DNA of 7,438 bases from a virus (lineage: Monodnaviria; Loebvirae; Hofneiviricota; Faserviricetes; Tubulavirales; Inoviridae): IMG/VR virus record IMGVR_UViG_2645727978_000001. One strand, 5' to 3'. Below the pieces are notes generated by a model. It worked only from the letters and a program-made list of their open reading frames with translations. It did no database searches and was not told the origin of the DNA. Positions 1 to 7,438 of the stretch are shown piece after piece. The position numbers were made by a program, and so were the translations under genes. The first letter of the stretch is position 1; each line of letters opens with the position of its first letter.

Positions 1-1739
<1,739 letters not shown>

Positions 1740-1743
1740 TTTT

Positions 1744-1917
1744 ATGTCTGTTAATTCGGATTCAGTTTCCACGCAAATTAATGCTATTTGCGTGGGGATA
1801 CCTGATGTGTCGGGGATTTATTCCTCGGCGTTTTTAACGGGATTTTCACTGCCAGTATTTTGTTTTTTTCTTGGCATGATTATTTCCACAATTTGGAGTT
1901 TAATAAGGAGACTTTAA
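1744..1917 (+). CDS. Small hydrophobic protein (57 aa), putative minor coat protein in the gVII/gIX position
   Basis: ATG at 1744 to TAA at 1915-1917; not in the ORF track because it is under 60 aa. The C-terminal half is hydrophobic (LTGFSLPVFCFFLGMIISTIWSLIRRL). It sits between the gV-like and major coat genes, and its stop lies 2 nt before the coat gene ATG. Confidence 0.4.
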   Translation: MSVNSDSVSTQINAICVGIPDVSGIYSSAFLTGFSLPVFCFFLGMIISTIWSLIRRL

Positions 1918-1919
1918 TT

Positions 1920-2168
1920 ATGTTTGCAAAAATGACCAATTTTTTTAAGGGTGTTGATAAGAAAGTTGCAGCTTTATCTTTTTCCGCTGCTTCTGCTCTT
2001 GCTGTATCTCCGTCTTTTGCTGGTACAGTCGATTTTTCATCATTGACTAACAGCATTGATATGTCTTCTGTTTCTGCTGTTATTCTTTCTATCGGTGTTG
2101 CAGGAGTTACAGTTTATCTGACTTTTGCTGGCGTTCGTAAAGTATGGGGAGCCATCAGAAGTATCTGA
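1920..2168 (+). CDS. Major coat protein precursor (gVIII-like), 82 aa
   Basis: RBS AGGAG at 1906-1910, 9 nt upstream of ATG 1920; the track's TTG start at 1860 is less likely. The product has an N-terminal signal peptide ending in SFA, then a roughly 48-aa mature part with an amphipathic N-terminus, a hydrophobic core (VSAVILSIGVAGVTVYLTFAG) and a basic C-terminus (VRKVWGAIRSI), which is the classic inovirus major coat architecture. A strong terminator follows. Confidence 0.8.
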   Translation: MFAKMTNFFKGVDKKVAALSFSAASALAVSPSFAGTVDFSSLTNSIDMSSVSAVILSIGVAGVTVYLTFAGVRKVWGAIRSI

Positions 2169-2182
2169 GTTGTTTTTTATGA

Positions 2183-2210
2183 GGAAGGGCGGATATTCCG
2201 CCCTTTTTTT
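2183..2210 (+). terminator. Rho-independent terminator downstream of the major coat gene
   Basis: GC-rich inverted repeat AGGGCGG / CCGCCCT (2186-2192 and 2198-2204) with a 5-nt loop, followed by a run of seven T (2204-2210). It occupies the same position as the gVIII terminator in Ff phages. Confidence 0.8.
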
Positions 2211-2302
2211 GGATATTTATGTTTGATTTTATTTTTATGATGTTTGGTTCCCTTTGTGGGTTATGTTGCGTCATTGGCTTTAAATCTAATTTGTGAGGTT
2301 TT
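2211..2302 (+). promoter_or_regulatory. AT-rich intergenic region, likely promoter for the 56-aa ORF and gIII
   Basis: A 92-bp AT-rich spacer between the terminator and the next ORF. By analogy with the gIII promoter location in Ff phages a promoter is expected here, but no convincing -35/-10 pair could be assigned by eye. Confidence 0.25.
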
Positions 2303-2473
2303 ATGTCTACTCAAGAATTTAAAGTTAAATTGCCAGAATACACTATCGAGCAGATAGAAAGAATTATTTACAATAAAAATACAACCATTGAAGAATATGT
2401 TGTTTCAGTTATTCTTGAAAAAGCCGATCAGGATTTCCGTCGAATTGTAAAACCATTTAGTTTTTACTGGTGA
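2303..2473 (+). CDS. Hypothetical small protein (56 aa) between the coat gene and gIII
   Basis: ATG 2303 follows GAGG at 2295-2298; TGA at 2471-2473 lies 4 nt before the gIII ATG. The product (MSTQEFKVKLPEYTIEQIERIIYNKNTTIEEYVVSVILEKADQDFRRIVKPFSFYW) is hydrophilic and charged. It is not in the ORF track because it is under 60 aa. Confidence 0.4.
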   Translation: MSTQEFKVKLPEYTIEQIERIIYNKNTTIEEYVVSVILEKADQDFRRIVKPFSFYW

Positions 2474-2477
2474 TGAA

Positions 2478-4019
2478 ATGAGTTTTTTGAAAAATATTTC
2501 TGTGTCGCTATTGTACGTTTTGTTAACAAATCACGCCTGTGCTGAAACAGCGACACTGACTACCACAACATTTTCTTCTGAATTGTCCGGTATTATTAAT
2601 CGCAAATTATCTGCAATGGGGGCCAGCGCCTCATCTATTTCGGCAACGTTATCAGGATATTCACGTGCGGCAGCGTCTTTTGCATCAAATTATGCTGCAT
2701 CTGCCGGGATTTCTGCTTCAGCAATGTCGTGGAGTACTCTGGCTTACGGTCTTGGTGTAACTACAGTCAGTCTTGGAATTTATGCCGCAGGAAAGCCTTT
2801 TGCTGAGGAGGTGGCAAAATTGGTTTTAGATAAAAACGGCTATAACGCGTTTTATTACACTCCAGCCATGAGTGCGGGTGTCAAGGCCTGGCATGGCGGG
2901 TTTGATAATTGCTACGTTACCAGTACTTCGCCGTTTTCTGCTGCTGCGCGGGTTATTCAGTGCTTACCTCCTGAAGAAAAATCCTCGCTTCAGTCGTCTT
3001 ATTATACTCCTCCTAAGAGTGACGTTGATAATGAGTGGTACAGATTCTACTACGCTTATTATTTTCGAGGTTCCTGGTCACAGAGTTCGTTTGTATTCTG
3101 GTCAGTAACGTTAAGTGAGGATTCTGTTTTTTGTGATAACGGTCAGGTTCTGTTTTATTCTGACGGTAATTCTACTTGCGAGGCAGCAACCACTGAAAAT
3201 CCATTCTCATCGTCTCTTCACGTGCCTTCTTTCTCTGGAAATAATCTGGCATCTCAGGATATTGCAGATATTCTTAACGGGCTGACTGAACAATTAGATG
3301 GCCTCTCTGAATATCGCGGGATATCTTCGTTTTTATTGAAATATTCCTCTGCTGACGTAGACAATTATCGTTCTACGGTAGATCTCCGCATCGGTGATTC
3401 TGCAAGTTTTACAGAATCTGGTGTTATTGCTATTCCTCCGACACCAGGTGGTGATACCAGCAATTCTGGAGGTAAATATACCCCTCCTGTTATTGACCCC
3501 GGTTTTAAGCCCGTTGGAGGTACGGGCAGCGGTACGGGTACAGGCAGTGGTACGGGTACAGGCAGTGGTACGGGTACAGGCAGTGGTACGGGTACAGGCA
3601 CTGGAACGGGTACGGGCACTGGAACGGGTACAGGCACTGGAACGGGTAGCGGTACAGGAGCTGGAGTCGGAACAGGTTCTGGCAGTACCACTGTAACAGG
3701 TAATGCTACGGTAAATGTTAACGTGACTGTGTCAAATGACTTTGGCACTGCACCTTCAGTGGATACGCCTGATATTTCATCTCCTGAGCCTTCATCATTC
3801 ATTTCTCCATTGTGGAATATGTGGCCTTCTGCGCGTGATTTTTCACTGACAATTCCACGGGGGCAGTGTCCTGTCTTTACATTCAATATCTGGAATAAAG
3901 ATTATCAACTGGATACTTTTTGTGTGCTGCTTGATACCGATGAAGTCAGGGCTACTTTCAGGGTGATTATGACGCTGATTGGCTCCATGCTTTCATTCTT
4001 TATTGTTCTTCGGTCCTGA
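2478..4019 (+). CDS. Adsorption / minor coat protein (gIII-like), 513 aa
   Basis: N-terminal signal peptide (MSFLKNISVSLLYVLLTNHACA), Cys-containing N-terminal domains, a long Gly-Thr/Gly-Ser linker (GTGSGTGTGSGTGTG...), and a C-terminal hydrophobic anchor (VIMTLIGSMLSFFIVLRS). This is the pIII domain architecture. Confidence 0.8.
   Translation: MSFLKNISVSLLYVLLTNHACAETATLTTTTFSSELSGIINRKLSAMGASASSISATLSGYSRAAASFASNYAASAGISASAMSWSTLAYGLGVTTVSLGIYAAGKPFAEEVAKLVLDKNGYNAFYYTPAMSAGVKAWHGGFDNCYVTSTSPFSAAARVIQCLPPEEKSSLQSSYYTPPKSDVDNEWYRFYYAYYFRGSWSQSSFVFWSVTLSEDSVFCDNGQVLFYSDGNSTCEAATTENPFSSSLHVPSFSGNNLASQDIADILNGLTEQLDGLSEYRGISSFLLKYSSADVDNYRSTVDLRIGDSASFTESGVIAIPPTPGGDTSNSGGKYTPPVIDPGFKPVGGTGSGTGTGSGTGTGSGTGTGSGTGTGTGTGTGTGTGTGTGTGSGTGAGVGTGSGSTTVTGNATVNVNVTVSNDFGTAPSVDTPDISSPEPSSFISPLWNMWPSARDFSLTIPRGQCPVFTFNIWNKDYQLDTFCVLLDTDEVRATFRVIMTLIGSMLSFFIVLRS
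3519..3684 (+). repeat. In-frame tandem 18-bp repeat array encoding the Gly-Thr/Gly-Ser linker of pIII
   Basis: Three perfect copies of GGTACGGGTACAGGCAGT at 3531-3584, flanked by degenerate copies including a GGCACTGGAACGGGTACA sub-family at 3597-3650. The array is in frame with gIII. Confidence 0.9.
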
Positions 4020-4033
4020 TAATCAGGTGGTGA

Positions 4034-4324
<291 letters not shown>

Positions 4325-4335
4325 GAGGGTGATTT

Positions 4336-6650
<2,315 letters not shown>

Positions 6651-6909
6651 TGCCGCAACGCGGCATGTAAGGCGGCATGATGATGTTTCATGTGATGCAG
6701 CTGCCTGACCGCCGAAGCCAGGGAGAAATTACAGAGCAGCAGGAGACAGCGCAACGCGCTTCCTGCCAGGCCGCTTTTAAAGGGCAGCTATCGAGACGAA
6801 CGACGCAAGGCGTGAGTCGTCCATGCATTGATGTGGCCAGTTGATGAAATTGATGGGTTACAGCAATTCTGGTGATGACTGGCCTTCGGTTTTCATCAGT
6901 CCTGATAAC

Positions 6910-6937
6910 AGTGCGCATAATGTATATTATGTTAAAT
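6910..6937. other. dif-like XerC/XerD recombination site (attP or prophage-chromosome junction)
   Basis: AGTGCGCATAA-TGTATA-TTATGTTAAAT matches the E. coli dif core (GGTGCGCATAA TGTATA TTATGTTAAAT) at 27 of 28 positions. The single mismatch is at the outer base of the XerC arm; the central region and the XerD arm are identical. Confidence 0.85.
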
Positions 6938-7150
6938 CATGTCTGAGTGATGCGAAGTGCTTTTCTGGTAGTCGTTATTCGTTCAGGGTTCAAGAACTTA
7001 AGCCTCTCCTCTTTCATAATTGGCCTGTGCATGGAGAAATAGCCTGGTTATTCCCTGCCCCATGCTAAGAGCGCAGTGTCTGTCGCATAGACACTGCATA
7101 CGAAAACACCAGAGGGTGCTGTTACTTATTTAAGGACGGATCAAGCGGGA

Positions 7151-7438
7151 ATGAGTCCACTCCGGTATCAGAAATGGCTACGTCTCAATGAAGTCAGGCG
7201 ACCGATGCTGAATGAACATTACGATGTCACCACAGCAGCCTATGCTGTCGGTTACGAAAGCTATCCCATTTCAGTCGGGAATATTCGCGGATTAGCGTTC
7301 AGGTCGGTAACACCCACGGAGGTAATACATCGTCTGGCACCAGTGGTTACAGTTCTCTTAATTATCGTGGAGCTTACGGTAATACGAATGTCGGTTACAG
7401 TCGGAATGGTGACAGCAGCCAGATTTATTACGGAATGA
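7151..7438 (+). CDS. Hypothetical protein (95 aa) downstream of the dif-like site
   Basis: ORF from ATG 7151 to TGA 7436-7438 with a weak RBS. The stop overlaps an ATG at 7435-7437 in another frame (ATGA), suggesting coupling to a gene that starts at the window edge. The C-terminal half is hydrophobic. Coding status is uncertain. Confidence 0.3.
   Translation: MSPLRYQKWLRLNEVRRPMLNEHYDVTTAAYAVGYESYPISVGNIRGLAFRSVTPTEVIHRLAPVVTVLLIIVELTVIRMSVTVGMVTAARFITE

Follow-up and report, generated by a model that had tools for sequence, protein, structure and literature searches.

This analysis concerns a 28-bp sequence at positions 6910-6937 (plus strand) of the 7,438-nucleotide inovirus record IMGVR_UViG_2645727978_000001 from IMG/VR, the whole length of which is called here the window. 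This 28-mer is almost certainly the right attachment site, attR, of a filamentous phage (inovirus) integrated at dif. It has been known for two decades that filamentous phages hijack host XerCD at dif. Taken as a whole, the observations are best explained, and quite probably so, by insertion at the dif of E. coli of an integrase-less phage of the CTXphi/YpfPhi type, that is an integrative mobile element that exploits Xer (IMEX). Exchange on the XerC side is held as a very probable part of this explanation. The use of folded single-stranded DNA (as in CTXphi and YpfPhi) and not of a duplex as the substrate is likely, with somewhat less assurance, and from the sequence of the sites we infer that integration depends on XerCD. 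The import is modest: a dif-like 28-mer at the edge of an inovirus can be read as a phage-host junction from its letters, and an undescribed lineage of E. coli filamentous phages is added to the CTXphi/YpfPhi class of Xer-exploiting elements.

The dif-like site downstream of the secretin gene

At positions 6910-6937 the plus strand of the window reads AGTGCGCATAATGTATATTATGTTAAAT and the canonical dif of E. coli reads GGTGCGCATAATGTATATTATGTTAAAT; they are identical at 27 of 28 positions and differ only at position 1, where the outermost base of the XerC arm is changed from G to A. With up to three mismatches allowed, this is the only dif-like site in the whole window, and a dif match was obtained in none of 200 dinucleotide-preserving shuffles. 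The one-mismatch resemblance to dif, which had been pointed out in an earlier sequence-only reading of the window, is thereby borne out. In K-12 MG1655 the canonical 28-mer is located between hipA and the yneL pseudogene.

The site is composed of an XerC-binding arm, AGTGCGCATAA (6910-6920), in which at least base 6910 (A) comes from the phage, a central region TGTATA (6921-6926), where TGT is common to phage and host and ATA is host-derived (the phage has GAC), and an XerD-binding arm, TTATGTTAAAT (6927-6937), which is host-derived and the same as in K-12 dif. It is the only site of the array with 11-6-11 spacing, a dif reconstituted at the right end, and the same hybrid site recurs in 12 other loci. 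Variation of dif within species is confined to, or concentrated at, positions 1-4 and 27-28 (PMC2731167), and for this reason the A at position 1 should be tolerated without impairing dif function.

The stop codon of the secretin gene (5391-6650) stands 259 bp from the 28-mer. The earlier placement of the site "directly after" the secretin was correct as to order and slightly generous as to distance; the interval is filled with a 3' non-coding region of the phage (6651-6909, plus strand), the same in all copies, which runs into the XerC arm. A position of the 28-mer inside a conserved coding gene of related genomes had been named as something that would speak against the reading. No coding sequence is annotated over the equivalent stretch in RefSeq genomes (15741-16073 of locus L001), and the two mechanical open reading frames (ORFs) which overlap the site, 6841-7068 (+) and 6688-6918 (-), are unsupported as genes.

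Comparison of the four attachment sites

The phage-host boundary was traced by comparison of the empty site (attB), the phage site (attP) and the two junctions (attL and attR). Every XerC-arm-like site in 20 loci was mapped by script, after the junctions had been read in E700025. The comparison took in K-12, 8 attL loci (L001, L036-L038, L044, L047, L048, L050), 11 attP junctions (L001, L036, L037, L039, L043, L045-L047, L049, L051, L052) and 13 attR loci, the window included. The empty attB of K-12 reads ttggtttatatt GGTGCGCATAA TGTATA TTATGTTAAAT catgtctgag. At the phage-phage tandem junctions attP reads agtcctgataac AGTGCGCATAA TGTGAC ACGCGTTATGT tgaaaaggcc, so that at 6-bp spacing ACGCGTTATGT is found in place of the XerD arm. 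In attL the host flank is followed by GGTGCGCATAA TGTGAC ACGCGTTATGT tgaaaaggcc, and in attR agtcctgataac AGTGCGCATAA TGTATA TTATGTTAAAT is followed by the host flank. The base at position 1 is A at all phage-phage tandem junctions and G in attL and in the empty attB; agtcctgataac stands before attP and attR alike, the 3' region of the phage being identical in all copies up to the arm.

Because this four-way comparison assigns the A to the phage and the ATA with the XerD arm to the host, the window site, judged in this way, is a hybrid: base 6910 is phage DNA, and positions 6924-6926 together with the XerD arm are host DNA. A hybrid junction of this kind, with an XerC arm from the phage and a right part from the host, had been suggested beforehand, and the A at tandem junctions and the G at attL agree with it. 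The crossover interval comprises positions 2-14 of the 28-mer, a 13-bp block GTGCGCATAATGT common to attP and dif, which includes the XerC cleavage position (arm base 11 / first central base) and leaves out the XerD cleavage position.

Matches to the window in 15 complete E. coli genomes, at 99.2-99.5% identity, start at base 1 (or 16) and end at 6923-6941, inside or just past the 28-mer, and therefore the boundary between phage and host passes through the site. The host right flanks at attR exist in at least five different versions, thus in independent chromosomal backgrounds. A gut-metagenome contig (L048), on which the whole window is matched at 99.73% identity, carries on one piece the order hipB-hipA-attL-single prophage-attR-yneL'; a second att site in chromosomal dif context, which had been set as a test in advance, is present there. 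Precise insertion at the host dif with hybrid attL and attR is what is expected of an IMEX. In E700025 the prophage is present as two tandem copies with hipA on one side and the dif-distal flank on the other, and tandem copies are found in most loci, a single copy being present in L038, L044, L048 and L050. The A at position 1 can serve as a practical marker which tells phage-derived from host-derived XerC arms and dates the order of insertion in an array.

It could be supposed that the G>A change is a polymorphism of the host dif and that the phage came to adjoin it by a route independent of Xer, since position 1 is known to be polymorphic within species (PMC2731167). This supposition is hardly credible: the A moves with the phage, being found at phage-phage junctions and not in attL of the same chromosomes, a T is its pairing partner in the phage hairpin described below, the phage/host boundary falls exactly within the 28-mer in 13 loci with different flanks, and neither integrase nor transposase is encoded by the phage according to Pfam.

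The phage attachment site and its predicted fold

The window starts about 935 bp inside the prophage and so lacks attL, the attP hairpin and a divergent 70-aa gene, all of which are upstream. In locus L001 the first dif-like site, attP1 (L001:8066, +), is AGTGCGCATAA-TGTGACACGCG-TTATGTTGAAA, with a good XerC arm, an XerD arm matching at 9 of 11 positions and a spacer of 11 nucleotides (nt), compared with 6 in dif. The second, attP2 (L001:8159, -), is AGTGCGCACAA-TGGCG-TTATGTATAAA; it is inverted, lies 34 bp beyond attP1 and has a spacer of 5 nt. Two inverted sites with an over-long and a short centre correspond to the CTXphi arrangement, where attP1 has a 12-bp centre and attP2, inverted, one of 5-7 bp, and where the sites fold in the (+) strand (PMC4246890).

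The plus strand of the window was taken as the packaged (+) strand from the orientation of the genes, as in other inoviruses. This strand is predicted to form a forked hairpin (dG -43.7 kcal/mol, z = -11.9; equally stable in 0 of 200 shuffles) composed of a 16-bp outer stem with the XerC arm, a 6-nt bulge TGACAC, a stem with the XerD arm and a perfect 14-bp inner stem. In the predicted fold the bulge is placed exactly between the arm duplexes, so that, as in CTXphi, the folded (+) strand would mimic a dif duplex with a bulged centre. The homology of the attP centre to dif is limited to TGT beside the XerC arm, the XerD side being GAC versus ATA. In CTXphi, too, the homology to dif is beside the XerC arm only; for that phage catalysis by XerC only and irreversible insertion are described (PMC4246890).

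The fold was examined by aligning 15 copies, which come from E. coli, Y. pestis (YpfPhi), Lelliottia, Phytobacter, Photorhabdus, Rosenbergiella, Izhakiella, Erwinia, Kluyvera and Pectobacterium. Their consensus folds into this hairpin again, with 98.2% of the cells paired, versus 28-48% when the partners are slid by 1-3 columns. Four pairs are changed on both sides, giving 12 double-change cells, a level reached by 0 of 500 shuffles. The most informative pair contains the base at which the window site departs from dif: position 1 of the arm is paired as G-C in YpfPhi-type copies, as A-T in three native E. coli phage junctions and as G.T in an attL hybrid, in which the host G took the place of the phage A. 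The TGT after the XerC arm is invariant and the next 5-6 nt, which form the bulge, are the most variable, as would be expected if three bases beside the XerC cut set the target specificity (PMC4246890).

Compared alone with other E. coli replicons, the hairpin module shows 81-94% identity. An exact 18-mer from it, TTATGTTGAAAAGGCCGC, retrieves the Y. pestis copies (both ends of the YpfPhi array) as well as copies in Lelliottia, Phytobacter, Photorhabdus, Rosenbergiella, Izhakiella, Erwinia, Kluyvera, Pectobacterium and Kosakonia. Of 29 genome-wide matches to this 18-mer, about 17, a number about equal to chance expectation, were found on inspection to be without hairpin and were set aside. Around 900 E. 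coli records matching the hairpin region were likewise rejected as evidence on the phage: they are mostly non-phage, carrying a decayed half of the hairpin and a fragment of IS200C on chromosomes and ColV-like plasmids.

Proposed route of integration and its rivals

In the proposed mechanism, which is modelled on CTXphi and YpfPhi, attP1 of the packaged (+) single strand would pair with attP2 in a forked hairpin, and this hairpin would offer duplex XerC and XerD arms flanking a bulged centre. Host XerC would then swap one pair of strands between the folded strand and dif, the exchange being stabilised, as in the analogous phages, by the TGT homology at the cut. The non-homologous XerD side (GAC versus ATA) would by the same analogy block the second exchange, and replication would complete and fix the insertion. 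As the sequences show, recombination of attP with dif left an attL in which the host XerC arm stands beside the phage spacer, and an attR in which the phage XerC arm stands beside the host TGTATA and XerD arm.

Because attR is the sole canonical 11-6-11 site it should act as the working dif and as the landing pad for further copies. Further insertions at attR would build up tandem arrays, and dimer resolution would be kept through attR. The attL and inter-copy junctions, with their 11-bp spacers, would be poor duplex substrates for Xer and the prophage would therefore be locked in. The frequency of tandem arrays, together with 11-bp spacers at attL and inter-copy sites, is consistent with irreversible insertion by XerC only. 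New phage genomes may arise, as in CTXphi, from rolling-circle replication across tandem copies, initiated by the RstA-like replication protein (Rep).

The exploitation of XerCD at dif and the hybrid att sites that it leaves are common to the VGJphi and TLCphi types, and both have to be weighed. In a route of the VGJphi type the double-stranded replicative form would recombine at dif through attP1 alone, with XerC strand exchange resolved by replication, and the hairpin would have another role, as terminator, complementary-strand origin or packaging signal. The structure of attL and attR and the orientation of the prophage equal the prediction of this route, the central homology on the XerC side only (TGT) is also the VGJphi rule (PMC4246890), and the inner stem with its T-run resembles a terminator by eye. 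However, the attP of VGJphi is one duplex site whose centre measures 7 bp (PMC4246890), whereas two inverted sites with spacers of 11 and 5 nt are found here and the arms of attP1 in duplex form are 11 bp apart. Furthermore, the second inverted dif-like site is conserved, with compensatory changes reaching past the 28-mer, and the module also occurs in YpfPhi, which is placed in the CTXphi class (PMC4246890, PMC4266046, PMC3442271). The hairpin was not called in a terminator and promoter scan, but with 11 nt its loop is larger than the scanner allows. This route is considered unlikely, with the largest remaining share of doubt.

In a route of the TLCphi type the phage would offer no XerD arm that can be used at a spacing of 6 bp, and XerD would be activated for the first exchange by a factor of the phage. 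It can be said in its favour that ACGCGTTATGT, the XerD arm of attP at this spacing, is degenerate in a TLCphi-like manner; yet TLCphi joins such an arm to a dif-like centre and an XafT activator (PMC4246890), and this architecture was not found in the window phage. The attP centre is not dif-like on the XerD side, a good XerD arm is present 5 nt further on, and the host ATA at central positions 4-6 of attR excludes a crossover at the XerD border for the retained strand. In addition, XafT is a DUF3653 protein, and no DUF3653 or XafT-like protein was found in the Pfam-scanned ORFs. Such a route is very improbable. The earlier reading of the window as an inovirus integrating through XerCD was right with regard to the dif-inserted lifestyle, which the att comparison supports, but the phages listed in it as parallels span different subclasses, and the attP is of the CTXphi, YpfPhi and CUS-1 type, not of the VGJphi type.

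Several points weigh against integration of a folded single strand by the CTXphi route. The observed junctions are exactly those that duplex integration at attP1 would give, and the dependence on XerC and XerD, the single-stranded substrate and the role of attR as a working dif are read from sequence only. Contigs of about 8 kb could be collapsed tandem repeats. As to the hairpin, 26 of its 37 pairs never vary, so that the covariation comes from 4 pairs, of which three lie at the outer edge. The inner stem of 14 bp with the T-run could be a transcription terminator or a complementary-strand origin, and protein binding, without any pairing, could in principle have kept the inverted dif-like arms conserved.

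Relation to known Xer-exploiting phages

YpfPhi of Yersinia pestis and CUS-1 of E. coli O18:K1:H7 are 99% identical at the nucleotide level over 7.1 kb (PMC4266046). YpfPhi and CUS-1Phi are listed as CTXphi-type (PMC4246890) and described as enterobacterial IMEXs related to CTXphi (PMC3442271). YpfPhi rebuilds an intact dif at its 3' end, has an inverted pair of XerC/XerD sites and occurs in tandem, with two to four copies per array (PMC4266046). The window phage resembles both in that it enters dif with no integrase of its own, leaves a nearly intact dif at its 3' end, forms tandem arrays and encodes a secretin, and its attP module is homologous to theirs, with TTATGTTGAAAAGGCCGC exact, about 92 bp at 82-86% identity and spacers of 11 nt and 5 nt. 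Outside this module of about 92 bp no such homology is found: pVI, Zot and secretin are only 38-49% identical. The Rep of the YpfPhi-like circle L035 is of the gene II/X family, whereas that of the window is Rep_trans and RstA-like, with no detectable similarity between them. The window phage also has no cargo ORFs between secretin and attR, its XerC arm begins with A and not G, and the outer stem of its hairpin is longer and better paired. By genome sequence it does not belong to the YpfPhi/CUS-1 lineage, and its identification as CUS-1 or YpfPhi was rejected on these amino acid identities (tblastn against Y. pestis and the YpfPhi-like 9.5-kb circle) and on the lack of a Rep match.

With CTXphi of Vibrio cholerae the window phage has in common an RstA-like Rep (33% identity), two inverted dif-like sites, of which one has an over-long spacer and the other a short one, a (+) strand that is predicted to fold into a forked hairpin, homology to the dif centre on the XerC side only and tandem prophages. 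The spacers are 11 and 5 nt here versus 12 and 5-7 in CTXphi, and the sites are 34 bp apart versus about 90 bp. CTXphi uses the host secretin, whereas the window phage encodes its own, has no toxin cargo and lives in a different host genus. The mechanism of CTXphi has been proven experimentally, while that of the window phage is proposed by comparison.

The UPphi phages (UPphi901; Shapiro & Putonti 2020) are inoviruses of E. coli and other Enterobacterales, present as tandem repeats at dif with only the first approximately 15 bases of dif repeated between copies (PMC7307601). Their structural genes are IKe/I2-2-like (about 70% at the amino acid level) and their genes II and V are YpfPhi-like (more than 85%) (PMC7307601). 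They are alike to the window phage as tandem dif-integrated inoviruses of Enterobacterales, but the window secretin has about 26% identity to pIV of Ff and its Rep is of a different family. Identity with UPphi was rejected, as the Rep is Rep_trans and not gene II-like and similarity at the IKe level is lacking.

The attP module is present in E. coli on at least three replication and structural backgrounds (the window phage, the variant in locus L039 and the phage of L003 and L042), and outside it on YpfPhi and on prophages of about ten other enterobacterial genera. Whether the hairpin of about 95 nt is a portable integration cassette, moving between otherwise unrelated inovirus backbones, is evenly balanced. 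If this were true, the window phage would be an uncharacterised lineage in human-gut and diarrhoeagenic E. coli, and apparently a recently spreading one because of the 99.2-99.7% identity across strains with different dif flanks; it would also offer a tractable E. coli model for single-strand integration of the CTX type.

Gene content and relatives of the phage

The prophage body (1-6909, plus strand) is 99.2-99.7% identical to dif prophages in 15 complete E. coli genomes and in several gut-metagenome contigs. Its genes run in one direction up to the 28-mer. They begin with a replication initiator of the Rep_trans family (168-1394; PF02486, E = 1.9e-21; RefSeq start 198), whose closest relative is RstA of CTXphi (33% identity over 92% of the Rep length). 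Next come a tentative candidate for the major coat protein (1920-2168, 82 aa) with an inovirus-like position and a sub-threshold match to Inovirus Coat protein B (PF05356, E = 0.007), and a putative pIII-like adsorption protein (2478-4019, 513 aa), named by its position before DUF2523 and Zot only and with no real Pfam family. A DUF2523 protein, the pVI-like minor coat (4037-4324; PF10734, E = 2.9e-9), the Zot or pI-like assembly ATPase (4336-5394; PF05707, E = 3e-22) and the pIV-like secretin (5391-6650; PF00263, E = 1.9e-25, and PF03958) follow. The complete inovirus gene set which had been recognised to the left of the site is supported by the Pfam matches of Rep_trans, DUF2523, Zot and secretin.

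Within the sensitivity of Pfam, with several small ORFs giving no match at all, no integrase, transposase, resolvase or XafT-like domain was found in 14 phage ORFs, the upstream ORFs of related copies included, in keeping with the definition of an IMEX as an element without its own integrase or recombinase. The Pfam scan likewise gave nothing for the divergent 70-aa gene and for a 55-aa ORF after the secretin gene. The pIII-like protein is the sole strongly variable gene among copies otherwise 99% identical (L001, L036-L038, L043-L050), its length differing between copies from 513 to 561 aa. Comparable variation, in a glycine-rich linker, is reported for g3p of UPphi (PMC7307601). The genes are now annotated only as "GspD", "Zot domain" or "hypothetical"; the region merits the label of a prophage with attR/dif.

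Of 5,426 complete E. coli genomes 15 carry the phage, O166:H15 clinical isolates among them, and it is also found in human-gut metagenomes. Megablast of the whole window against deposited phages returned nothing, and the best protein matches among these are Zot and secretin at 40-50% to uncultured gut inoviruses (Zot top 50%, secretin 40-41%). The secretin search contained two Lineavirus records in the tally of organisms and none among the 15 best matches (lowest about 25% identity), and the Zot search of deposited phages returned neither Lineavirus nor Ff records. The proteins are common in E. coli assemblies under generic names, and a literature search, O166 H15 with prophage included, found no paper describing the phage. 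On these comparisons the phage is an undescribed lineage with an attP module of the YpfPhi type.

Several relatives were noted. A sibling inovirus in E. coli Z0117EC0005 (NZ_CP098223.1, locus L002, 2722-12357, corresponding to 3519-6855 of the window) encodes DUF2523, Zot and secretin with 99-100% amino acid identity to the proteins of the window, and their RefSeq accessions are the same as in the window-type prophage of L001. Its "replication endonuclease" of 2 kb is a different one and has an IS110-family transposase in front of it. The sibling sits between hcxB and ybiB, away from dif, and is followed by a phospholipase D gene; an exchange of its integration module seems to have taken place. 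Similarity is also lost at position 6855 in several other genomes (H17-H25 of the window search). In E. coli S21EC (NZ_CP076689.1, L039, 1-15309) a tandem dif prophage has the structural genes of the window phage and identical attP and attR, and its regulation and replication module consists instead of an HTH repressor, a gene-II-like "phage/plasmid replication domain" protein and SSB. By this comparison the replication modules are exchanged and attP is kept.

The 3' non-coding region of another dif-resident inovirus, in UTAK-3 (L042, at 9010, 9474 and 9621) and in O8:H8 strain 16F5M1D1 (L003, at 16799 and 17262), contains two extra internal attP-like sites (AGTGCGCATAA GACATA TGCCGTTATGT...). 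One of these, fused to the host XerD arm, closes the array in 16F5M1D1, with the crossover on the XerD side, and the only dif of canonical spacing has a GACATA centre instead of TGTATA, which could block later phages relying on TGT homology. A crossover on the XerD side was considered for the window family from this GACATA attR and rejected, the internal sites belonging to a different phage with no bearing on the window. A 9565-bp circle deposited as "plasmid pMTY14759_untypable1" (NZ_CP128883.1, L035/L004) is a YpfPhi/CUS-1-type inovirus genome with an intact attP, encoding an HTH regulator, a gene II/X Rep, a DNA-binding protein, DUF2523, Zot, secretin and two small cargo ORFs. It speaks for the persistence of such phages in E. 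coli in the form of free replicative circles.

Host flank and other elements adjoining dif

The DNA to the right of the site, positions 6938-7438, had been suspected to be host chromosome or further cargo, and proved to be host chromosome. The stretch 6938-7292 (plus strand), the region of the yneL pseudogene, is found in 5305 of 5426 complete E. coli genomes and, compared by eye with K-12 MG1655 downstream of dif, has one mismatch, at about 7205 (window cgaccgatg, K-12 cgacagatg). Divergence from K-12 starts at 7293, and 7293-7438 is a fragment of the fimbrial usher gene ydeT, by the annotation under the genome match. The join is a strain-specific deletion which links the yneL pseudogene to internal ydeT and creates a 95-aa fusion ORF (7151-7438). 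The same yneL/ydeT junction is present in metagenome contigs L048 and L049, in both of which the match, at 99.73%, covers the host flank and the deletion junction.

An island of about 2.7 kb, with a SIR2-family gene and a fragment of an ISNCY transposase, lies between hipA and a prophage of the window type in L038 (6300-9086) and L037 (1-1094). It starts exactly at the expected XerC arm of dif with sequence like the end of IS200C, joined by the right half of a hairpin of the YpfPhi type, and a GGTGCGCATAA arm of its own stands at the other end. The island has the look of an Xer-exploiting element that is old and decayed. The position of this older element on the hipA side of the phage supports the polarity of the array. 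The same hairpin remnant is found beside an IS200C fragment on ColV-like plasmids (compare L005, 3990-4070). The remnant with IS200C probably accounts for most of about 880 weak E. coli records (80-90% identity), L005 and L038 having been inspected.

A contig of a metagenome-assembled genome labelled Candidatus Nanosynbacter (JARKOR010000214.1, L013) carries at about 5720-5824 an E. coli-type dif flank of the hipA side, tggattctcccttggtttatgtt, followed by a YpfPhi-type attL hairpin, and is almost certainly an enterobacterial contig that was mis-binned. In the metagenome contig L045 (7922-12370) a different island comes after attR on the host side, with a 464-aa protein showing a weak phage-integrase match and a DUF4145 protein, a further case of variable content adjoining dif.

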